Origin: Vulcanimicrobiota bacterium
Lineage (GTDB): Bacteria > Vulcanimicrobiota > Vulcanimicrobiia > Eremiobacterales > Eremiobacteraceae
Direction of reading: 5' to 3'
Assembly: GCA_963812135.1 (NCBI GenBank)
Contig: CAWETU010000005.1
Location: 288,001 to 352,000, forward strand
DNA length: 64,000 nucleotides
Below the pieces are notes generated by a model that was not told the origin of the DNA, ran no database searches, and saw only the letters and a program-made list of their open reading frames with translations. Below, piece after piece: positions 1 to 12,380 of the stretch (positions are counted from its first letter, which is position 1; the number at the start of each line of letters is the position of its first letter). Both the position numbers and the translations under genes were made by a program.

Positions 1-285
1 AATGCAAGTCCAATACTTGCTCGGGTCAGGCGGTGTCCAGCCGGGACCTTGGCACGATCCACCCACGTTGGACAAGCTCACGAATGTCTGGTTCTTGACG
101 TTCACCTGCAGATAGCCATACTGCCAATGATTCGCGCCCTGCGTGAGCGCAAAGTCCGCCACCGAGTCCGCGAGTACCGTCGGACCCTTGTCTGCGTGCG
201 CGGCCAGAGACTCATCGCCAAGACTAAGCGCAAGACCGACCGACAGAACCATCACCGCCATCCCCAGGCGACCTATCTTGTCCAT
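1..285 (-). CDS. Secreted hypothetical protein, runs off the left edge (partial)
   Basis: Read manually: AAGGAG SD, ATG at 285, MDKIGRLGMAVMVLSVGLALSLG signal-like N-terminus, then ...LADSVADFALTQGANHWQYGY...; frame stays open to position 1. Absent from the ORF track because no stop is in the window. Confidence 0.7.
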   Translation of the reverse strand, partial: MDKIGRLGMAVMVLSVGLALSLGDESLAAHADKGPTVLADSVADFALTQGANHWQYGYLQVNVKNQTFVSLSNVGGSCQGPGWTPPDPSKYWTCI

Positions 286-531
286 CGCGACTCCTTGTCC
301 GCCGGTCCAAATGCTCTTGACGCCTCGGATAACATTTCCAACGCAGGAACAGCGCCGAGATCTTACACTGGAACCGTGCCAGCGAACGCTTAGCGAGTCG
401 CGAGCTGCCGCCCTGTGTTTGTCCGCTGACGCGTGTGATTCGGCTCTAGATTCCCCAAGGGGGAAGCGAAGGCGTCGTGGGAAACGGGTCTTCTGTTTAT
501 GCGAGACGTATCGCGCTTTGAAAGAGGGCCT

Positions 532-903
532 ATGACAAAGTTCGCTGCCGCGCTGCTGGCAACAGCAATCATCGTCGTAGACAGCCCGGCAGTTCCCGCT
601 GCTTCGGGCGTGTGGAACTTTGGGTCAAGTGCAGACATCGCTGCTGTGCGTGAGGCGATTCTTGCAAACCCTGATGTTAAAGTCCCCGGCGTGCATGTAG
701 TTGGCGACTACGCGCTCACGCAGGTATATATAGGCACAGAAGCAAGCGGGATGTGGGTGTACAAGCGAATTTCAGCGGAACACTGGAAGAGAATCATGGG
801 AGGCGGGGGTGCAGTGGATGCGACTATGATGAGCGGAGCCGGCGTTCCGCCATCGATCGCGCGTCGGCTCTGTTCAGGCTGGCCCAAAGGCTATGGCTGC
901 TAA
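532..903 (+). CDS. Small secreted hypothetical protein
   Basis: GAGGG SD, ATG at 532, MTKFAAALLATAIIVV signal peptide, two C-terminal Cys. Confidence 0.65.
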   Translation: MTKFAAALLATAIIVVDSPAVPAASGVWNFGSSADIAAVREAILANPDVKVPGVHVVGDYALTQVYIGTEASGMWVYKRISAEHWKRIMGGGGAVDATMMSGAGVPPSIARRLCSGWPKGYGC

Positions 904-975
904 GTTGCCCGAGCGCCGCGGCTTCGAATTGATCCTACGACATGGTCGCCGGACGTTCCGGAACGAGTCTTCTTT

Positions 976-991
976 TAGGCGGCGCTCGCCC
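976..991. repeat. Left direct repeat (copy of secA 3' end; TSD or att core)
   Basis: TAGGCGGCGCTCGCCC identical to 3027-3042; the exact match extends to 19 bp if the T-run is included (973-991 = 3024-3042). Confidence 0.9.
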
Positions 992-1028
992 AAAAAAGAC
1001 TTGTGCCCGGCTGTTATGGGACGTTACG
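992..1028. repeat. Left terminal inverted repeat
   Basis: AAAAAAGACTTGTGCCCGGCTGTTATGGGACGTTACG. Confidence 0.9.
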
Positions 1029-1031
1029 AAT

Positions 1032-1619
1032 TTAGTTCCTGCAATCGAGCTTGAAAAGAAAGTCGTAGTGTTTCACCGTAAAGTGAGGGACGTTCTTTTC
1101 CTTCGCGAGCTTGCTTCCATCGAATAGGATGTTGAGCGCAGTCGGCTTGTCGGATGGGTTAAAGGGAGCGGGGAACGCAATAAACCTTTGCGCGTACGTG
1201 TATTGAGCGGAAGGTTTAAGGCGATGCGATGCGAGCGTTTGAAGGTCGCTTGTGGCGAAGTGCGTATCGCCGGCGCCGATAATGTTCCTGTGCAAGATCA
1301 CCACCTGACCGCTTATCAGTGAATCGCCTGGAGCGATCTCTGATTGGGTGACGTTTCGCCAGATCTCGGTGACCTTATAACCAACCTTTTGCCGACCGGA
1401 TACGGTCTCTGCGGAATACGGCTTGCTGTCTGTCACTTCCACGCGCCAAACGCCGTTGTCCAGCCACTGACCCATACATCCCTCCACACTAGTCGCTTTG
1501 GCCTGACCTAGTGCATCAGCCGCGATTGTGGCTTGAACCAGCATAGGACAGGCGAGCGCCGCGACAATGAAGGCGAACGAGACGGCAAAATTGCCTGTCC
1601 TCCTGAAACAACTAAGCAC
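1032..1619 (-). CDS. Secreted hypothetical protein (element cargo)
   Basis: AAGGAG SD then GTG at 1619, in frame with ORF 1032..1754; hydrophobic signal region; EGCMGQWLDNGVWRVEV segment and a C-terminal Cys; stop lies 3 nt from the inner end of the left TIR. Confidence 0.7.
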   Translation of the reverse strand: MLSCFRRTGNFAVSFAFIVAALACPMLVQATIAADALGQAKATSVEGCMGQWLDNGVWRVEVTDSKPYSAETVSGRQKVGYKVTEIWRNVTQSEIAPGDSLISGQVVILHRNIIGAGDTHFATSDLQTLASHRLKPSAQYTYAQRFIAFPAPFNPSDKPTALNILFDGSKLAKEKNVPHFTVKHYDFLFKLDCRN

Positions 1620-1930
1620 AGTTGGCTCCTTAATTGAACCCGATCTTCCAAGCCATTGCAACGCAGAAGCCTTCGCTCCCTTGGAGCCATGCAGCCACCG
1701 GACGTTTGAATCGACGACCGGACGTTTTCGGTTTTCGGAGATGTCGCAAGTCATGGCTGCAACTGGGGCGGCGGCTCACTCTGATCTTTTGGCCCCGTCA
1801 CTGATTCAAACGTCCGGCGAGTATCGATTTGTTAGTTGCCGATAGCGGGGGGATGAGCGCGACGGTACGCGCGCCCGACCACGCGCATACGATTACTTCC
1901 CCACATTTATCAATGGCATGAAGAAAGGGG

Positions 1931-2761
1931 CTAGGTCGGGGGCCAAATCACACAGAGACGGTCGAGGCCAGATTCTTTGATCGTGCCACCCGCAATCTTG
2001 ACATGAGCCCTAACTGTATAGCAGGTCCCTGATGCTTTGATTGGTGGCCCTACTCCTAAAGGTCCGTCCATAAAGCCGGTTGTCGGGAAGGGCACTTCGA
2101 AGGTTGGAGGTCCGTCAGGCGAGGTCACGGTGAATCCGTCTACTGCAGCAACGCAACCCACATGACATGGATTCCAGTCCCAGATCAGAACTAAACGCCG
2201 ATCGGCGATCGCCTTGGCACAGTTGGCGAGCTTATGGGCTACGCAAGTCGCCACTTTATAGCTGTATTGTAGATTTGTGGGAGCCACGAGCGTCGAAGGG
2301 ATGCATACTTCATTGCTGAGTCTTGATTGGATCTTGCCGAAGGCGGCGGTGACGGCGTAGCATCGAGCGCCAAAACCCCGCAATCCGGCCGGACGCGTGA
2401 CGAAGCCGACTGTGGCCTGCGTCGTATTGCGATCGACGAGTTTGTGCATGCCGCCCTCGACCTCGTAGACGGCGAAGCTGTCCTGGGTGGGATACGCTTT
2501 GTTGCCGGTCCAGTTGAACACCAGAACCAGGCTGCTCTTACTACGTGCGTCTGCACAGAGCAGCGCAGCAATCGGCCCGGTGTGCGCGCCGCAAACGTGA
2601 GGGTCGCTCGTCACCACTAGATCGGTTGGCGCAGGCATTTGTGGATTCTGTGTGTGGACGACCCCGCCGCTCCCGGGCTTCTGGCTCGCGAGCAACGTGC
2701 CGGCGGATAGCGTGAAAGCTACCAGCGCAACGACCAGACCTAGCGTGCGGACAAGTCTCAT
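1931..2761 (-). CDS. Secreted Cys-rich protein with two internally repeated FN3-like modules (element cargo)
   Basis: AGGAG SD, ATG at 2761, signal peptide MRLVRTLGLVVALVAFTLSA; repeats APTDL..LVLVFNW..CYAVTA..SNEVC and APTNL..LVLIWDW..CYTVRA..ES..C. Confidence 0.75.
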   Translation of the reverse strand: MRLVRTLGLVVALVAFTLSAGTLLASQKPGSGGVVHTQNPQMPAPTDLVVTSDPHVCGAHTGPIAALLCADARSKSSLVLVFNWTGNKAYPTQDSFAVYEVEGGMHKLVDRNTTQATVGFVTRPAGLRGFGARCYAVTAAFGKIQSRLSNEVCIPSTLVAPTNLQYSYKVATCVAHKLANCAKAIADRRLVLIWDWNPCHVGCVAAVDGFTVTSPDGPPTFEVPFPTTGFMDGPLGVGPPIKASGTCYTVRAHVKIAGGTIKESGLDRLCVIWPPT

Positions 2762-2989
2762 GATCGCACTCCTATCCGACGTGAACATCTAGTCCAAGAA
2801 CGCAGCGCGTGCGGGCGAAGGTTCCGCGGAGGTCGTCTCGCAGCGTGGCGTCGATGCGCCGCGCAGTCTGAGAATCGGCGGAGGCAGAAATTCAACTGAA
2901 CTACTGCTCGAGCCCGCTAGGAGCGCCTGTACATTGGTCGCAGCCTGGTCGGCACTTCTGACCAGGACCGGTTTGCAGGCCAGCACCCA

Positions 2990-3026
2990 CGTAGCGTCCC
3001 ATAACAGCCGGGCACAACTCTTTTTT
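2990..3026. repeat. Right terminal inverted repeat
   Basis: CGTAGCGTCCCATAACAGCCGGGCACAACTCTTTTTT, reverse complement of 992-1028 with 2 mismatches. Confidence 0.9.
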
Positions 3027-5733
3027 TAGGCGGCGCTCGCCCCGTGGCATTTCTTGTATTTCTTGCCTGATCCGCACGGACATGGATCGTTACGTCCGAC
3101 CTTCGCCTCCGCTTTGCGCGCCGGCGCCGGACCGCCGGCGTCGTCTCGATTGGTGTGTAGCTGATCGAAGCGCCGTGCCGCGCGCGCGTCGAGTGGGACC
3201 GACGCCCTGGCTGGCTGGCCGTTGGGGGCGGCTGCTTCAAATGGTGCGCCGTCGGGATGCGATTCGGTGAGCTGTTGCGTCGGAGGCGCCTGGGGCGGCT
3301 GCTGGACGACCAGATGGAAGTCCTCGCCCTGCGACATGGCGCCCAAGAACTCTTCTTGGATGCTCGCCTTGAGATCTTCGAACAAGTCGAACGCCTCGCG
3401 CTCGTACTCGACACGCGGATCTTTTTGGCCCCAGCCGCGCAGCCCGATGCCTTGCTTGAGGCTGTCCATGGTGTAGAGATGGTCGATCCATAAGCGATCG
3501 ATGATCTGCAGCATCGTACCGCGTTCGAGCATGCGCAGGCCGTCGTGCAGGCCCTTCTCATCCATCTGATCTTTGTAGCGCGACACGAAGCGCTCTTCTT
3601 TTTCCGTGTACATCTCGTCGGCTTGCTCGGCGATCCGCTTGACCATCTCTTCCTTCGAGAGTGGCTCGAGCTCGTCGACGCTCATGCGCTTGGCGAAGCC
3701 GCGCACGACCTGGTCGAACTCCTTGATGATCTCGTCGCGTTCCCACTCGTGCGGGTGGACGTTGTCGGGGCAATTGGCCTCGACGATCTGGCGCGCCTTT
3801 GGCTTCGAACATGGACGTGAGCGAGGGACGAAGATCGTGGCCTTCGAGCACGGAACGGCGCTCGGCGTAGATCACCGTGCGCTGCTTGTTCATGACGTCG
3901 TCGTACTCGAGCACGTGCTTGCGGGTCTCGTAGTGGTGCGCTTCTACCTTCTTCTGCGCGCGCTCGATGCTCGCGGTGAGGATGCCCGCTTCGATCGGCG
4001 TGTCATCGTCGATGTTGAAGCGCTCCATGATGCCGCGGATACGCTCGCCGCCGAAGATGCGCATCAGCTCATCGTCAAGCGCGGCATAGAAGCGCGACGA
4101 CCCCTTGTCGCCTTGACGTCCGGAACGCCCGCGCAGCTGGTTATCGATGCGTCGCGACTCGTGGCGCTCGGTGCCGATGATGTGCAGGCCGCCTAAGCGC
4201 GGGCACGCCTTCGCCAAGTTTGATGTCGACGCCGCGGCCTGCCATGTTGGTGGCGATCGTCACCTTGCCGTACAAACCGGCATCCTTGATGATCTCGGCT
4301 TCCTTCTCGTGATACTTCGCGTTGAGCACGTTGTGCTCGATGCCGCGCTTGCCGAGCATCGCGGAGAGGCGTTCGGACTTCTCGATCGAGCGCGTGCCCA
4401 CGAGCACCGGGCGTCCAGCGCTGTGCATCTCGATGATCTCGTTGATCACCGCACGGAACTTGCCGTCTTCGTGGTTGTAGACGACGTCGTCGAAATCTTT
4501 GCGATGCGCCGGCACATTCGTCGGGATCGAGATGACGTCCAGCCCGTAGATCTCGCGGAACTCGCGCTCTTCGGTCTTGGCCGTGCCCGTCATACCCGCG
4601 AGCTTCTTGTACAGGCGGAAGTAGTTCTGGAAGGTGATGGTCGCGAGCGTTTGATCCTCGCTCTTGACCTTGATGCCTTCTTTGGCTTCGATCGCCTGAT
4701 GGATGCCGTCCGAGTAGCGGCGGCCGTACATCAGCCGGCCGGTGAACTCGTCGACGATGATGATCTCGCCGTCTTTGACGACGTACTGCTCGTCTTTGCG
4801 GAACAGCTCTTTGGCTTTGAGCGCGGCTTGCAGTTGGTGCGCCATCTCGAGGTTAACGGGATCGTACAGGTTTTGCACGCCGAGCAGCCGCTCGACTTTC
4901 GCGACGCCTTTCTCGGTGATCGGCGCCGCATGCATCTTCTCGTCGACGGTGTAGTCCTCGTCGCGCGTCAGCTGCGGCATGATCTGGCGCGCGAAGCGCT
5001 CGTAGAGATGCGACGGATCCTTGTAGCCGGGACCCAGGATCGCCTCGGGCGAGCCGCTGATGATGAGCGGCGTGCGCGCCTCGTCGATCAGGATCGAGTC
5101 GACTTCGTCGACGATCGCGTACGCGAGCTCGCGCTGCACGCAGTAGTCGATGTGCGGCGCCATGTTGTCGCGCAGGTAGTCGAAGCCGGCCTCGTTGTTG
5201 GTGACGTAGGTGACGTCGGCGCCGTAGGCTGCGCGCCGCTCGACCGGCGGCATGAAATGCTGGATGATGCCGACACTCAAACCGAGCGCGTGATAGATCG
5301 GCGTCATCCACTCGGCGTCGCGCTTGGCGAGGTAGTCGTTGACGGTGACGAGGTGCACGCCTTTGCCGCTCAGCGCGTTGAGGTAGACGGCGAGCGTCGC
5401 GACGAGCGTCTTGCCCTCGCCCGTGCGCATCTCGGCGACTTTGCCGTCGTGCAGCACCATGCCGCCGATGAGCTGCACGTCGAAGTGGCGCATGTTGAGC
5501 GTGCGCCTGCCGGCTTCGCGCACGAGCGCGAACGCCTCAGGCAACAGCTCGTCGAGCGTGGCGCCGTTCGCGAGTCTCTCGCGCAGCTCGGGCGTCTTGG
5601 CCGCGAGCTGCTCGTCGGACAGCGCTTGCATGGCCGGCTCGAGCGCGTTGATGCGGCCCACGTTGCGGCGCAAGCGGGCTACCTCGCGGTCGTTACCGTC
5701 GACCCACGATTTTACCGTTGAGAACAATGACAA
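3026..5733 (-). CDS. secA: Preprotein translocase ATPase SecA (split by two apparent frameshifts near 4200 and 3790)
   Basis: [46 protein letters not shown] and C-terminal [18 protein letters not shown] spread over three consecutive frames. Confidence 0.97.
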
Positions 5734-6246: not shown

Positions 6247-6959
6247 AGCTTGACGTTCAACGGGTCGTTGATTTGTTCGAGACTGAGGTCACGCTGCAGC
6301 TGCGACAACGTCACGAACGTGAAACCCGCGCGCCGGTATGCGTCGACGATCTGCGGCAGCGCCTCGATCGTCGGGACCGAACCGTTGTGCAGCAGCAGCA
6401 CCGCCGGCGACTTCGCGTGCGCGATGACGTGGTCGACGATGAACGGCGACGTCACGCGCTTCCAATCGCCCGGATCGATATCCCACAGCGCCACGACTTC
6501 ACCGTTGCCGCGCGCCGCGTCGATCGTCGAAGCGTTGAAATTGCCGTGCGGTGGACGGAAGTAGACGATGGGCCGGCCCGTCGCGCGGTGTATCGCCAGC
6601 GCTCCGTCGACAACCTCTTCGAATTGCGCGGGAAACCCAAGCGCCGTCATCTCCGGATGGCTAAGCGTGTGATTGCCGATCTCGTCAGGACCTGCCCCGA
6701 CGCGCGCGGCGATCGCCGGCTGTTCCGTCGAGTCGCGCCCGATGAAGAAAAAGACGGCGGGCACGTTCAGCTTGCGCAATTGCGCGAGCAGCGCGGGCGT
6801 CGCCACCGGATACGGGCCGTCGTCGAAGGTGAGCACCGCATACTTCGGCCGCGCGGGCGGCGCGATGAGATCGCGCACGTCCGTCAGCATGCGCTGCGCG
6901 ATCGCGCGCGGCGGTGGATCGAGCACTTGCGCGCTCGAAATGGCCGGCGGCACGATCAC
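6243..6959 (-). CDS. Polysaccharide deacetylase (NodB/CE4); N-terminal TM segment probably extends to ~7045 across a frameshift
   Basis: LTFDDGP, GNHTLSHP, YFRPPHG, LLLH motifs. Confidence 0.92.
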   Translation of the reverse strand: MIVPPAISSAQVLDPPPRAIAQRMLTDVRDLIAPPARPKYAVLTFDDGPYPVATPALLAQLRKLNVPAVFFFIGRDSTEQPAIAARVGAGPDEIGNHTLSHPEMTALGFPAQFEEVVDGALAIHRATGRPIVYFRPPHGNFNASTIDAARGNGEVVALWDIDPGDWKRVTSPFIVDHVIAHAKSPAVLLLHNGSVPTIEALPQIVDAYRRAGFTFVTLSQLQRDLSLEQINDPLNVKL

Positions 6960-10265: not shown

Positions 10266-11095
10266 GCGGTCCGGTCGTCTGCGTGGGATGATTGGCCGCG
10301 AACTTGCGTTCCTCGACCTGACCGTTTTGGCCGAGCGAGCCGAGCGGCTTGCCGTCGATCGTCGCGTTCACGCCGCCGGCGTTGCCGGCGCGCAGCGTGA
10401 TCTCGTGCACCCCATGGAAGTCGCGCACCGTGCCGGCGGGCAACGTCTCATACACGACGCGCTTGCCGTCGACGGTGACCGAGAGCCAACTGTCTTGCGT
10501 GAGCTGCAGCTGCAAGTCGACGCCGTTCTGCTTGGCGCCGTTCGCCGCGCCCGCGCTGCCGCCGCTGAAGAGCGCGTCATCTTGCGGCGCTGGCGAAACG
10601 CCAGCGTCAGGTTGCGTTTGGGCTTGCGCGCTTTGCGCATTCGATTGCGCTTGCTCGCGCGGCGCCGGCGCGAACGTGTAATACAATACGGCAATGACGA
10701 GCACCGCTGCGAGCACGTAGGCACCGCCGAGCAGCCATCCATATGCAGGACGCGACTTGTTCGCCGTGATGCATCCGAAACGTGATCGGCTCGGGCTCGA
10801 TGACCGGCGATACGTCGGGCGCCTGCGTTTGCGTCGCTCGAGCGGCGACATCGGGACCCTGCGCCGGAATCGCTGCGTCGATCTGATCCGCGATCGTGGC
10901 CGGGTCGATGCCGACGAGCTTCGCGTAATTGCGGACAAAACCGCGGGCATAGATAGGGGGCCCGAGGCGCGCCCAATCCTCCGAGTCCATGGCGGTGACG
11001 AACTCCGTACGGATATACAGCTGACGCGCCGCTTGCGCGGCGGTCACCTTGCGCTGTTCGCGCGCTGCACAGAGCTGCTCACCTAAACCGGACAT
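10258..11095 (-). CDS. rodZ: RodZ-like HTH-TM-DUF4115 protein, frameshift near 10780
   Basis: LGEQL..AREQR..YARGFVRNYAKLVG N-terminus; TM segment and SWLSVTVDG..LRAGNAGGV..LGQNGQVE C-terminus in the next frame. Confidence 0.88.
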
Positions 11096-11201
11096 TGCAC
11101 CCTGCCGTCCGCGAAGCGCGGACAGAGTCGGAAAAGGACGAAATGGATGGGGACTGCCCCGTTGCAGAGAATTGGAGGAGGTTGCAACCCCTACCTCTGT
11201 G

Positions 11202-12380
11202 ATGCAGATGACGATATCGACGCTTTCGACACCCGATCATGAAACCTTAACCGCCGGCCGCTGGCCGGCGGGGTTTGCGCTTGCAGCCATGAGCGGCGGC
11301 GTCGACAGCGCCGTGGCGACCGCTTTGGCCGTCCGCGGCGGCGTGCGGGCGGTCGGCGTGACGATGCGGCTGTGGAGTCCTGGGGAAGGGGACCTCTCCG
11401 AGCGGGTCCGTCAGTGCTGTGGGCCTACCGCCTATGAGGACGCGCGCCGCGTGGCGGCCCGGGCCGGCATCGCCCACTACGTGGTCAACTTCGAGGCGGC
11501 GTTCGAGGCCGCCGTGGTCGACTATTTCGCGGCCGAATACGTGGCCGGGCGCACGCCAAACCCCTGCGTGGCCTGCAACAACCTCGTGAAGTTCGGCGCG
11601 CTGCTCGATTTCGCCCGCGCGCTCGGCGCGCAGACCATGGTCACCGGCCACTACGTGCAGATCAGTTCGGACGAAGCCGGGCCCCATCTGCGCCGCGCGG
11701 TCGACCGGACGAAGGATCAGTCCTATATGCTGGCCGGCTTGCGCCGGGATCAACTCGCCTCAATCGTCGCGCCGCTGGGCGCATATACAAAGGAAGCAAC
11801 GCGCGCGATGGCGCGCGAGCTCGATCTCGGCGTCGCGGAGAAACCCGACTCGATGGACCTATGTTTCGTCGACAGCGATTACCGCGGTTTCATCCTGCGT
11901 CGCCATCCCGATGCGGCTGCTCCGGGTCCGATCCGCACGCTTGACGGCCGCGAGGTCGGAACGCACGAAGGGTTGATCGCGTACACCGTCGGGCAACGCA
12001 AGGGTATTCCCACGGCGGGTCTCGGCGATGGCCCTTGGTATGTCGTGCGCACCGAGCGCGCCGAGAACGCCGTCGTGATCGGACGGCGCGAAGATCTCGC
12101 GCGCCGCTCCGTGCTGTGCAGCCAGCCGAACGTGATCCAAACCGGCGCCTTCGCATCCGGCGCGGCGACAGGCCTCGCCGTGTGTCGCTATCGCGGCGCG
12201 CCCATCGCAGCGACCGCGCGCTTGCTCAGCGACGAGCGTATGGTGGTGCACTTGGAAGAGCCGGCGAGTATCGTGACGCCCGGCCAGTTGCTCGTCCTCT
12301 ACGACGCGGCCAACTCGGAGGTGCTCGCCTCAGGCATCATCGAGCCGGACGACGCAACCGAACTGGCCGCGGCTTCGTAA
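11202..12380 (+). CDS. mnmA: tRNA 2-thiouridine(34) synthase MnmA
   Basis: AMSGGVDSAV, GRTPNPCVACN, TGHY, KDQSY, YTVGQRKG, TPGQ; start approximate. Confidence 0.95.
   Translation: MQMTISTLSTPDHETLTAGRWPAGFALAAMSGGVDSAVATALAVRGGVRAVGVTMRLWSPGEGDLSERVRQCCGPTAYEDARRVAARAGIAHYVVNFEAAFEAAVVDYFAAEYVAGRTPNPCVACNNLVKFGALLDFARALGAQTMVTGHYVQISSDEAGPHLRRAVDRTKDQSYMLAGLRRDQLASIVAPLGAYTKEATRAMARELDLGVAEKPDSMDLCFVDSDYRGFILRRHPDAAAPGPIRTLDGREVGTHEGLIAYTVGQRKGIPTAGLGDGPWYVVRTERAENAVVIGRREDLARRSVLCSQPNVIQTGAFASGAATGLAVCRYRGAPIAATARLLSDERMVVHLEEPASIVTPGQLLVLYDAANSEVLASGIIEPDDATELAAAS

Follow-up and report, generated by a model that had tools for sequence, protein, structure and literature searches.

Tn7 is directed by TnsD to attTn7 downstream of glmS, and is characterized by a 5-bp duplication, the tnsABCDE genes, TGT ends and repeated TnsB sites. 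Casposons insert at a conserved gene's 3′ end, form tandem arrays, carry terminal inverted repeats with a 14-15-bp duplication, and are defined by the Cas1 casposase, usually together with a family B polymerase. CIMEs lack an integrase and lie between duplicates of a housekeeping gene's end, as beside ICESt1/ICESt3 at fda in Streptococcus thermophilus; each flank is an attachment site that traces back to a known tyrosine integrase, encoded by an ICE next to it or by a related one. In MICs and MITEs, passenger DNA that lacks a transposase sits between inverted repeats and is flanked by a target duplication; these elements share their ends with a resident multicopy IS and occupy many sites. The long-duplication subgroup of the IS1202 family (ISTde1, ISCARN62/63, ISShha1 and others) makes 16-17-bp duplications, has 24-27-bp terminal inverted repeats, and consists of autonomous 1.3-1.7-kb insertion sequences with a TnsB-like DDE transposase of 394-507 aa and TGT...ACA termini (Harmer, Pong and Hall 2023, PMC10132070). 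That article found no target for this subgroup; it describes the ISAjo2 members of the family as strictly target-specific, with extra internal transposase-binding sites near each end, and the pdif modules of Acinetobacter plasmids as enzyme-less, set between recombination sites in inverted orientation and presumably moved by an enzyme of the host (PMC10132070).

The cassette considered here lies next to the 3′ end of secA in the window (the whole 64,000-nucleotide stretch of DNA analysed). Its 16-bp duplication and long terminal inverted repeats are shared with the IS1202 long-duplication subgroup, and the preliminary description was mistaken in treating long duplications as nearly unique to casposons. 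Unlike IS1202, the secA element has no transposase, its genome has no rve match, its ends are A-runs, and its subterminal motif differs from the terminal one. It resembles Tn7 in using a safe harbour where the conserved coding end of an essential gene would fix the insertion distance and the gene stays intact, but the system has no tnsABCDE genes and duplicates 16 rather than 5 bp. In common with CIMEs, the secA cassettes are integrase-less, have gene-end copies at their flanks, stack in tandem and leave the gene intact, whereas no ICE or integrase was found and a fixed 16-bp host repeat is abutted by long inverted repeats. In contrast to the ends of MICs and MITEs, secA-type ends occur only at secA, one to four per genome, and the genome has no IS-like multicopy repeat.

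The cassette at the secA stop codon

The secA gene (3026-5733, minus strand) has the Pfam families SecA_DEAD, SecA_PP_bind, P-loop_SecA, SecA_SW and SEC-C. It is split over three frames in the assembly, and comparison with the related genome G005 reveals two extra single bases (at ~4199 and ~3800) that are probably assembly errors. The protein ends in ...KKCHGASAA*, with the stop codon at 3026-3028. The target of insertion is the final 16 bases of secA ahead of the third base of the stop. This sequence, TAGGCGGCGCTCGCCC, is present at 3027-3042, where it reads GGGCGAGCGCCGCCTA on the secA strand and comprises the last codons and the TA of the stop, and again at 976-991, identical at 16/16 positions by both sequence reading and repeat search. 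Below, T denotes either copy. Between the two copies, inverted-repeat arms at 992-1028 and 2990-3026 (37 nt, 35/37 complementary, 95%) abut T with no spacer at either end, and the A/T run of the right arm provides the third base of the stop codon. The order reported in the preliminary description (direct repeat, inverted repeat, two genes, inverted repeat, direct repeat at the secA stop) is real, as is completion of the stop codon by the first A of the arm.

The runner-up inverted repeat within the first 6 kb of the window is 32 nt long at 75%. For a 26-nt piece of the arm, the window has two copies where 100 shuffles give an expectation of 0.00, and the 16-mer, allowing up to two mismatches, occurs three times against 0.14 expected, a number reached in 0/100 shuffles. 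At lower similarity, the direct repeat continues to a length of 32 nt (960-991 versus 3011-3042, 88%), and therefore the sequence on the left side of the left repeat is similar to the right arm's tip. An older element's end appears to persist there as a relic (949-975), in which 960-975 resemble that tip at 12/16 positions (manual count) and 949-957 carry CCGGACGTT, which is like the subterminal motif described next.

Each arm represents a terminal motif, M, that consists of an A-run, ~5 nt and then GTGCCCGG...TTATGGGACA. A subterminal motif, P (ACCGGACGTTT), is unlike M and lies 40-150 nt further inward in many copies of the element, often as a tandem pair ~20 nt apart. The cassette also has an internal P cluster (1696-1817), in which CCGGACGTTT occurs twice (1698-1707, 1718-1727) and a third time inverted (1808-1817); a match to R1, our model of the combined end module, falls inside it (C5:289697-289742). 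This cluster could be the relic junction of two fused cassettes, or a regulatory site.

Misassembly of the duplication was a concern, given that the assembly has single-base errors and strain-variant contigs. However, short-read contigs from public run X1 span 930-1245 and 2947-3101 with no differences and bridge both junctions, although X1 may be the sample of origin and so backs the assembly rather than representing an independent population. The right junction recurs in a related strain in run X2 (2785-3087, with 5 other letters and 2 gaps), and the same architecture is found in nine further genomes. The chance that the repeats are an assembly artefact is negligible. Among the short-read contigs aligned, which cannot reveal rare forms, there was neither an excised circle nor an empty-site allele.

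Target copies, cargo and empty sites in related genomes

The window cassette belongs to a lineage-specific system in which cassettes accumulate between secA and prfB. A second copy of the host's own secA end is present in 10 genomes from 5 genera of one family of Candidatus Eremiobacterota. Over the 16 bases after CACG, the downstream copy matches at 16/16 positions in the window's genome, G001 and G002 (inverted in G002), at 15/16 in G031 and G029, and at 13-14/16 in G009, G018, G011, G025 and G028. The left edge of the duplication is constant in all 10 genomes, directly after the CACG of the SEC-C motif, and the repeated sequence is each host's own. Given that the window's genome and G001 have secA ends with 7/16 positions different (manual count), the duplications postdate the split of these lineages. 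In G031, secA is one codon shorter, yet CACG again marks the left edge and the repeat keeps its length of 16 (15/16), entering the A-run; this agrees better with a fixed stagger than with a shared attachment core. The left flank of the distal copy is the T-rich tip of an inward-facing arm in 7 of the 10 genomes.

In three other genera of the family (G012, G017 and G020), only 6-80 nt separate the secA stop from the start of prfB, which carries the CTT TGA C frameshift site, and there is no A-run. These secA-prfB neighbours are empty sites, of the kind the preliminary description proposed to look for. In G011, the distal copy immediately precedes prfB, as expected if the insertion went into an empty secA-prfB site.

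Among these related soil bacteria, cargo varies between the same kind of ends. The window cassette encodes two secreted proteins, G031 carries uncharacterized proteins of 488 aa and 613 aa, and G001 a dehydrogenase, a TetR regulator and pieces of STAND/TPR genes. The earlier claim of site-specificity with differing cargo is therefore borne out in relatives, whereas delivery of exported proteins describes the window copy and G031 and fails as a general rule, given the cargo of G001. Arrangements also vary: the distal T is inverted in G002, G018 has a second T-M unit in direct orientation, G001 has T-M-inverted T, and the arms flanking the cargo are different variants (M and M′) in G009, G002 and G018.

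As in the window, M lies directly 3′ of the secA stop in relatives. It is present in 10/32 genomes of the family and in 0/297 genomes of the sister family. R1 has 29 matches in 13/32 family genomes; of these, 28 share a contig with secA and lie no more than ~15 kb from it. The viral contigs, plasmids and phages searched had no match. As far as searched, the element family is limited to this one family of Candidatus Eremiobacterota.

Candidate mechanisms of insertion

No recombinase genes were found in the islands examined. Among ~130 island ORFs from 12 genomes, the only match to a transposase or recombinase family was one IS3-type HTH fragment (G031). The cassette itself, as first reported, contains no transposase or integrase, and neither of its ORFs has a Pfam family. 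The window's genome (98% complete) has one Xer-type tyrosine recombinase and no match to rve, DDE_Tnp_1, IS110, Mutator, Y1_Tnp, Resolvase (serine recombinase) or Cas1. Apart from a few stretches present in two copies, its multicopy repeats are strain-variant contigs and overlaps between contig ends. Given that the ends were not seen away from secA, no autonomous partner was seen.

We see about an even chance that 992-3026 is a non-autonomous, strictly site-specific mobile cassette, inserted through a fixed 16-bp staggered cut made by a trans-acting enzyme. In this scenario, one strand would always be cut between CACG and the G of the SEC-C coding sequence and the other between the second and third bases of the secA stop codon, and repair would duplicate the 16 bp in between. 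The terminal A of the element would rebuild the stop codon, leaving SecA unaltered. Newcomers would insert beside secA and displace older copies toward prfB, where they would decay, and repeated insertion could build a variable island of accessory genes. The enzyme is presumably transposase-like with a fixed stagger, may be positioned by the conserved SEC-C sequence much as TnsD of Tn7 reads the glmS end, and probably acts from DNA outside these assemblies. Mobilisation in trans, suggested in the preliminary description, would still have to be supposed, as neither an autonomous copy nor an enzyme was found anywhere. A literature search found no paper on secA as an insertion target. The missing enzyme and autonomous partner count against this reading, as does the fact that the ends start with an A-run and not with the TGT typical of TnsB/IS1202-type ends. 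The inverted T of G002, the direct T-M unit of G018 and the M/M′ pairs are unpredicted by simple transposition, and therefore require later inversions and deletions.

The two motif classes at each end would also suit the core-plus-arm attachment site of a tyrosine integrase. The heterobivalent attP of lambda has such a layout, and here P lies 40-150 nt from the core on both sides. The cassettes could then be CIME-like, integrase-less remnants or satellites, in which an attP of the form arm-T-arm recombines conservatively into an attB at the secA end; M would be inverted core-type sites and P arm-type sites, tandem accretion would enlarge the island, and the integrase would reside on a helper element absent from these assemblies. 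The distal sites are indeed arm-T-arm quasi-palindromes, integrases typically show such specificity for one site at a conserved gene's 3′ end, and direct T-M repeats occur in G018. However, a conservative recombinase requires matching crossover regions and makes no duplication, whereas the 16-bp repeat has the same left edge and is the host's own sequence in genomes with up to 7 differences between their 16-mers. No tyrosine or serine recombinase was found at the secA region in the 32 family genomes, and the five genomes of the window's genus have the Xer-type enzyme only. We therefore consider this possible and rather doubtful. Local rearrangement without any mobile element seems unlikely. 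Palindromes in a recombination-prone secA-prfB spacer might drive template switching, inversions and duplications that leave repeats as by-products, with genes arriving by homologous exchange. The distal site does fold as a long hairpin (-25.6 kcal/mol, z -2.7; 2/200 shuffles equally stable), and inversions are seen, both in the G001 and G002 arrangements and in a 533-aa gene block whose orientation in the window's genome is opposite to that in G005 and G001. Yet template switching does not account for exact 16-bp direct repeats that have three different sequences and share their edges, nor for the same pair of end motifs around unrelated cargo in five genera or the clean empty sites in other genera.

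Transfer by the host Xer-type enzyme, as for IMEX at dif or the pdif modules, is very unlikely. In the window's genome no other recombinase family was found, a conserved copy of the Xer-type gene is present in 31/32 family genomes, and M contains TTATG, with which many XerD arms start. The secA cassettes, like pdif modules, are enzyme-less gene modules between inverted sites at their bounds (PMC10132070). But pdif and IMEX sites are 28-bp XerC/XerD sites without target duplication, and Xer recombination yields no 16-bp duplication. M lacks the 11-6-11 dif layout, one half being arm-like, a likeness that follows from the search design, and the genome's one canonical dif-like site is conserved in 0/31 relatives. 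Assuming that contigs C1 and C5 close the circle, secA lies ~0.38 Mb from dnaA on a chromosome of ~2.7 Mb, not near the expected terminus. Insertion of the cassette by a Cas1-type integrase, with a ~15-bp duplication at a conserved gene's 3′ end, is most improbable. The casposon link was drawn from terminal inverted repeats, a 14-16-bp duplication, a conserved gene's 3′ end and tandem arrays, all of them casposon features, but Cas1 is missing from the window's genome, from 30/32 family genomes and from every island examined, and the island ORFs include neither a Cas1 family nor a polymerase, family B included. The two Cas1 matches (G005 and G023) lie in parts of the genome away from the secA island, and M was not found in G023. 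Thus, the preliminary interpretation stands for site-specific insertion and for the lack of an internal recombinase, and falls for casposons.

Cargo genes and the secA-prfB island

The older part of the variable island (1-948) contains a 134-aa secreted ORF (499-903, plus strand) and the start of a 207-aa secreted ORF (1-285, minus strand). The island extends ~5.8 kb past the window start and ends at prfB (L054:7237-8172, equal to G000:C5:281237-282172).

Both cargo genes are on the minus strand, and both proteins have signal-peptide-like N-termini, as read by eye. The second gene (1032-1754) probably has its true start near 1619, ahead of the signal peptide, and its top Atlas match (0.94) is a cluster without a name, in which Vulcanimicrobiota is the phylum recorded most often. 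The first (1931-2788) encodes a secreted protein of 285 aa that may consist of fibronectin-III-like domains; its Atlas feature scores against fn3 clusters, 0.90-0.91, are a weak lead. A 70%-identical stretch of this gene is present on a different contig of G006.

The repeat structure at the secA stop

The element at window positions 992-3026 lies between the secA stop and prfB, holds two secreted-protein genes (1931-2788 and 1032-1754, both on the minus strand) and is bounded by two kinds of repeat. The direct repeat T, TAGGCGGCGCTCGCCC, occurs at 976-991 and 3027-3042 with 16 of 16 positions identical, and the inverted arms M, 37 nt long with an A-run at the tip, occupy 992-1028 and 2990-3026 and are complementary at 35 of 37 positions. 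Both arms abut the T copies with no spacer. secA is encoded on the minus strand, with the C-terminus ...KKCHGASAA* and its stop at 3026-3028, and the first A of the arm is at the same time the third base of that stop. The sequence and a repeat finder agree to the base with the anatomy first proposed in the preliminary description.

The runner-up inverted repeat in the first 6 kb of the window is only 32 nt long at 75%. A 26-nt piece of the arm has two copies against 0.00 expected from shuffles, T is found three times at up to two mismatches against 0.14 expected, and the arm has only two copies in the genome of the window (G000, GCA_963812135.1), both at secA. Neither gene of the element belongs to a Pfam family, in keeping with the earlier statement that no transposase or integrase lies inside. 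Feature searches gave weak leads, to fibronectin-III-like proteins for the first gene and, for the second, to an unnamed cluster in which Vulcanimicrobiota is the commonest recorded phylum.

Contigs from one public short-read run, which may be the source sample, span 930-1245 and 2947-3101 with no differences, and a second run contains the right junction (2785-3087) in a variant form, with five other letters and two gaps. Given that short-read contigs cross both junctions, the structure is not a misassembly, a worry raised at the outset that can be set aside. Two further runs (X3 and X4) matched in nothing but short, scattered pieces, which at the right junction amounted to just the conserved SEC-C stretch. 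The contigs of the four runs hold no joint, circle or empty-site allele, which is neutral either way because contigs drop rare forms. secA itself (3026-5733) is read in three frames in the window, with two single-base insertions relative to the related genome G005 at about 3800 and 4199 (CCAAAGG against CC-AAGG, and CCCGCG against CCAG-A). Intact secA genes in G001, G005 and G011 encode 899-903 aa, and both frame breaks in the window are probably assembly errors.

Repeated and independent insertion across the secA stop

The same ends are present in relatives from one Eremiobacterota family. At up to three mismatches in 21 nt, M was found in 10 of 32 family genomes, with one to three copies each; tallies out of 32 include three unpublished genomes (G010, G013 and G016), on which no specific claim depends. 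Of 401 genomes sampled from the phylum, nine were positive: eight from this family, none of the 297 from the sister family, and one with a three-mismatch match elsewhere. In relatives, too, M lies directly 3' of the secA stop. Read along the sense strand of secA, the layout in the window is secA, T, a forward M, cargo, a reversed M, T and the relic of another forward M. This layout recurs in G001 (a 5.2-kb element) and G031 (5.0 kb) and, more decayed, in G009, G018, G029, G025, G028 and G011. An arm variant, M' (GGGGTTTCCGGGCAYGGGGYTTTT), is present in G002, G009 and G018 and adjoins secA in G024 and G026; it has in common with M the 8-mer GTGCCCGG, at an equal distance from the A-run.

DNA downstream of secA was inspected in 24 genomes, several with less than 1.2 kb available, and a second T copy was tabulated in ten, which are a chosen set and not a random one. 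In all ten the left edge of the duplication falls directly after CACG. The 16 bases that follow recur at 16 of 16 positions in G000, G001 and G002 (where the copy is inverted), at 15 of 16 in G031 and G029, and at 13-14 of 16 in G009, G018, G011, G025 and G028. The duplicated T is in each genome that genome's own secA end, and by our own count 7 of the 16 positions differ between the secA ends of G000 and G001. In G031, whose secA is shorter by one codon, the repeat still begins at the CACG edge and covers 16 bases, extending into the A-run. Because T is host-specific while its length and anchor are fixed, the duplications arose separately in several lineages. Insertion of DNA across the secA stop has occurred repeatedly and independently, always at one fixed point and with sixteen host bases duplicated, and the inserted units have common composite inverted ends, unrelated cargo and no enzyme.

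In G012, G017 and G020, from three other genera, the secA stop is followed after 6-80 nt by an ORF starting MNEQL, with no A-run. This ORF contains CTT TGA C, the classic RF2 frameshift site; it is prfB, and these three genomes have empty sites. In G011 the distal T copy stands directly before the prfB start, 3 kb from secA, and in the genome of the window prfB lies about 8.7 kb beyond secA. G003, from the same genus as the window, has just about 9 nt of the arm left beyond the stop, on a contig that ends 434 nt further on, and is not a clean empty site. Cargo differs between the same arms: G031 carries unknown proteins of 488 and 613 aa and a 126-aa fragment with an IS3-type HTH, and G001 a short-chain dehydrogenase, a TetR regulator and STAND/TPR pieces. 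Recurrence of the repeats in the family, empty sites and exchanged cargo had all been suggested as checks in the preliminary description, and each was found.

A subterminal motif, P, accompanies the arms. Its 10-mer form CCGGACGTTT has nine copies in the genome of the window, four of them in the variable secA-prfB spacer (the island), and its 9-mer form CCGGACGTT has 29, five of them in the island; P-type sites lie at window positions 949-957, 1698-1707, 1718-1727 and 1808-1817 and at G000:C5:287596. The motif is present in the islands of eight relatives. In relatives it lies 40-110 nt inside the forward M, in many cases as two tandem copies some 20 nt apart, and in opposite orientation 75-150 nt before the reversed M. 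P could be a binding site for a recombinase or transposase, or an operator. An alignment of eight end modules conserves CACCGGACGTTT...TTCAGRATC...CTGTCCCAGAATGGCCGG...T-run, and a sequence-only model built from it (R1) gave 29 matches in 13 of the 32 genomes, 28 of them on the secA contig and within about 15 kb of secA; the remaining match is weak (E 0.003) and on a different contig. With 28 of 29 matches near secA, the ends are composite and specific to this locus. In the window element the P sites fall in the middle (1696-1817), between the two genes and beside a degenerate T-like stretch, which suggests that the 2-kb element may be two fused one-gene cassettes.

The missing enzyme and the mechanism of insertion

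Profile searches of the genome of the window for Cas1, rve, Resolvase, DDE_Tnp_1, Y1_Tnp, IS110 and Mutator gave no hits. The only recombinase that the searches found there is a single tyrosine recombinase of the Xer type. Neither tyrosine nor serine recombinases (PF00589, PF00239) were found at the secA region in any of the 32 family genomes. About 130 island ORFs from 12 genomes were scanned (93 of them, of at least 170 aa and from nine genomes, in one batch), and they contain no transposase or recombinase family except the IS3-type fragment of G031. The larger copies with a Cas1-like, DDE or recombinase gene that the preliminary description had proposed to look for are absent from this set, and no autonomous element was found in the 12 islands. 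Paralogues of the cargo genes on other contigs of the relatives are without the M or P motif. Beyond the family, a metagenome scan for the ends returned five loci, of which just one is a genuine secA site, identical in sequence to that of G011, a scan of species genomes found true sites only in Eremiobacterota records, and neither viral contigs (no matches to either end motif) nor plasmids and phages matched the ends. Because binning of metagenome-assembled genomes often loses mobile DNA, the absence of an enzyme is weak evidence for any model.

Several described systems come close: the IS1202 long-duplication subgroup, CIMEs with tandem accretion, casposons, Tn7 at glmS and pdif modules. Each fails in at least one tested defining feature. 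The casposon likeness consists of the terminal inverted repeats (37 bp, 35 of 37) and the 16-bp duplication at the secA 3' end (about 14-15 bp in casposons), but a Cas1-family casposase is absent from the element and from the genome. Cas1 (PF01867) was found in only 2 of the 32 family genomes, neither match at secA, and in none of the island ORFs, so the link to a casposase drawn in the preliminary description does not hold, and mobilization by such an enzyme is very improbable. Nor are long duplications peculiar to casposons, given the precedent of the IS1202 subgroup, which is described in PMC10132070 as having 16-17-bp duplications, 24-27-bp inverted repeats, TGT ends and its own TnsB-like transposase. 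The target duplication here, 16 bp in G000, G001 and G002 and matching at 15 of 16 positions in G031 and G029, falls within the 16-28 bp of IS1202 long-duplication elements. However, their TnsB-like DDE transposase of 394-507 aa is absent: the cargo ORFs have no Pfam family, and rve (PF00665), used as a detector of IS1202 transposases on an assumption from the TnsB likeness stated in PMC10132070, has no candidate in G000 or G031. The ends also differ, starting AAAAAAGA(G/C)T rather than having the form 5'-TGT...ACA-3' with 24-27-bp inverted repeats; the first TGT lies about 10 nt inside the ends, and by our own reading taking it as the end gives no consistent direct repeat.

Other comparisons separate more sharply. 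MITEs and MICs have ends shared with an autonomous IS at several sites, whereas here the two end copies of the window's genome are both at secA, 28 of 29 module matches in the family are at secA, and the genome has no IS-like multicopy repeat. The dif-like 11-6-11 XerC/XerD boundary sites of IMEX and pdif modules are absent. Integrons have an IntI integrase next to attI, and attC sites separate their promoterless cassettes. They make no target duplication, whereas the cassettes here are bounded by one, and the only tyrosine recombinase of the genome, on another contig, reaches 128.6 bits with the integron-integrase model, whose cut-off is 265. Full-text literature searches turned up neither a description of secA as a target for insertion nor one of such elements in Eremiobacterota; the one paper found to mention secA beside attB is irrelevant. 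The cassette is a non-autonomous, site-specific insertion cassette, a known kind of element, and is both genuine and unusual. Clean in its structure and conserved in several genera, the system has no known mover.

The length and anchor of the duplication are fixed, independent of the sequence duplicated, which points to a staggered cut and fill-in of the transposase type. We give a transposition-type reading an even chance. A staggered cut across the secA stop, followed by fill-in, would produce the 16-bp duplication of T, and the enzyme or a targeting partner would read the highly conserved SEC-C coding sequence beside the anchor, much as TnsD reads the end of glmS. The newest copy would adjoin secA, with older copies decaying toward prfB. 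Later inversions between the inverted arms, and deletions, would also be needed, because T is inverted in G002, M and M' arms are mixed, and G018 has a direct repeat of T with M.

The main rival treats M as core sites and P as arm sites of an integrase-type helper located outside the assemblies. It shares with CIMEs and other integrase-type elements the lack of recombination genes inside, the flanking copies of the target end and the tandem arrays, but an identifiable integrase at secA is missing from 32 genomes, and an autonomous ICE, IME or prophage from the islands of 12. The fixed-length duplication points away from conservative recombination, a process that depends on matching cores and leaves no duplication behind, and we consider this attachment-site reading unlikely. 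That the Xer recombinase drives the insertions is a good deal less probable still, its presence in the genome being set beside boundaries that are not dif-like. Rearrangement of DNA that is not mobile at all, for which the inversions might speak, is improbable beside duplications that arose separately in several lineages, though less so than the Xer explanation. Least probable is an artefact, since short-read contigs bridge both junctions.

We tentatively entertain the idea that the secA-prfB spacer is a dedicated gene-capture platform served by an undescribed enzyme, which might belong to a new family of transposases or recombinases, or be a host protein with no known role in moving DNA. Such an enzyme would read the SEC-C coding sequence, make a cut staggered by 16 bp across the stop, and recognize composite ends made of terminal M and subterminal P. 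More generally, it is possible, if somewhat doubtful, that an undescribed enzyme or mechanism lies behind the cassette. If true, a site-specific system adds genes behind an essential gene without harm, works in bacteria otherwise almost free of mobile DNA, and shows a route by which small-genome, IS-poor soil bacteria acquire accessory genes. The secA tail would then join a short list of safe-harbour sites (among them glmS, tRNA genes, rlmH and dif). The defined target (16 bp and the SEC-C coding sequence) and the defined ends (M and P) are handles for finding the missing enzyme, and a compact enzyme able to deliver cargo to a fixed, conserved and harmless site would be of interest to genome engineers.

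Island contents and other features of the genomes

Besides the 2-kb element, the island of the window's genome encodes a methyltransferase, a glyoxalase, a cupin, DUF1801 and DUF4760 proteins, a secreted protein of 533 aa and small secreted proteins. G005 and G001 have islands of similar size that share part of this content, with one block inverted. In two genera the island has a conserved resident, a Cys-rich secreted protein (400-530 aa) that belongs to no Pfam family (extracted loci L054:11983-13584, that is G000:C5:285983-287584; L039:9259-10455; L041:9228-10718). Its block is inverted in G000 and G011 relative to G005 and G001, and the block edge carries a CCGGACGTTT site. DUF4760 genes occur in the islands of six genomes from three genera (L054:8411-8932; L039:11651-12298; L040:10129-10677; L080:6304-6864; L057:8253-8837; L042:3997-4770, 4779-5396 and 6247-6849), with three copies in G018, and match no defence-system model; the island proteins as a whole gave nothing significant against these models. 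The G005 island (L039:4885-7704) encodes a 939-aa protein in which an adenylate/guanylate cyclase domain is combined with a STAND NTPase and TPR repeats, and parts of the arm-bounded element of G001 (L038:8928-9992 and 10606-11556) resemble fragments of a related gene. Two islands have a sigma-factor gene inside them or close beyond their edge: in G031 one of the ECF type, with a small ORF downstream (L037:8602-9615), and in G007 a group-3-like one (L073:2647-3444), a hint that island genes may have their own regulation. In G001 the M after secA is flanked by the 16-mer T on one side and its reverse complement on the other (L038, about 3078-3140 on the secA strand), forming a 15-bp stem with a 31-nt loop, followed by a degenerate second SEC-C coding end.

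Other identities for M were considered and rejected. A scan for intrinsic terminators lists nothing at either arm, the hairpin is no better than shuffles (z +0.9, +1.2 and +0.4), and in G007, G028 and G029 the stem has diverged in its second half while TGTCCCAGAATG is retained as sequence. No known RNA family was found by Rfam in the end modules at the loci of two relatives, G005 and G018. M also does not have the 11-6-11 XerC/XerD layout of dif. The sole CATAA-N6-TTATG site in the genome of the window (C1:2290420) is away from M and is conserved in none of 31 relatives, and thus is a chance occurrence. Half-sites like TTATGGGACAC were matched at 162 scattered places, among which no clear palindrome emerged. 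IMEX elements integrate at the chromosomal dif, in the terminus region. Provided that contigs C1 and C5 close a circle, the distance between secA and dnaA is about 0.38 Mb in a chromosome of some 2.7 Mb, and GC skew is too weak to place the terminus.

The genome of the window (2.79 Mb, 6 contigs, 98% complete) is almost free of mobile DNA, and its repeats longer than 200 bp are only strain-variant contigs, contig-end overlaps and a few two-copy stretches. Two TnpB-like (Cas12f1-like_TNB) ORFs are present far from the window (G000:C1:1318453-1318653 and 1310584-1310781, in open frames of 438 and 232 aa), in a genome without a Y1 or serine TnpA. Contigs C3 and C4 are 89-97% identical to C1:1928625-1949365 and therefore represent strain haplotypes. 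C1 ends with the same 2.9 kb (99%) with which C5 begins, so the two contigs join.
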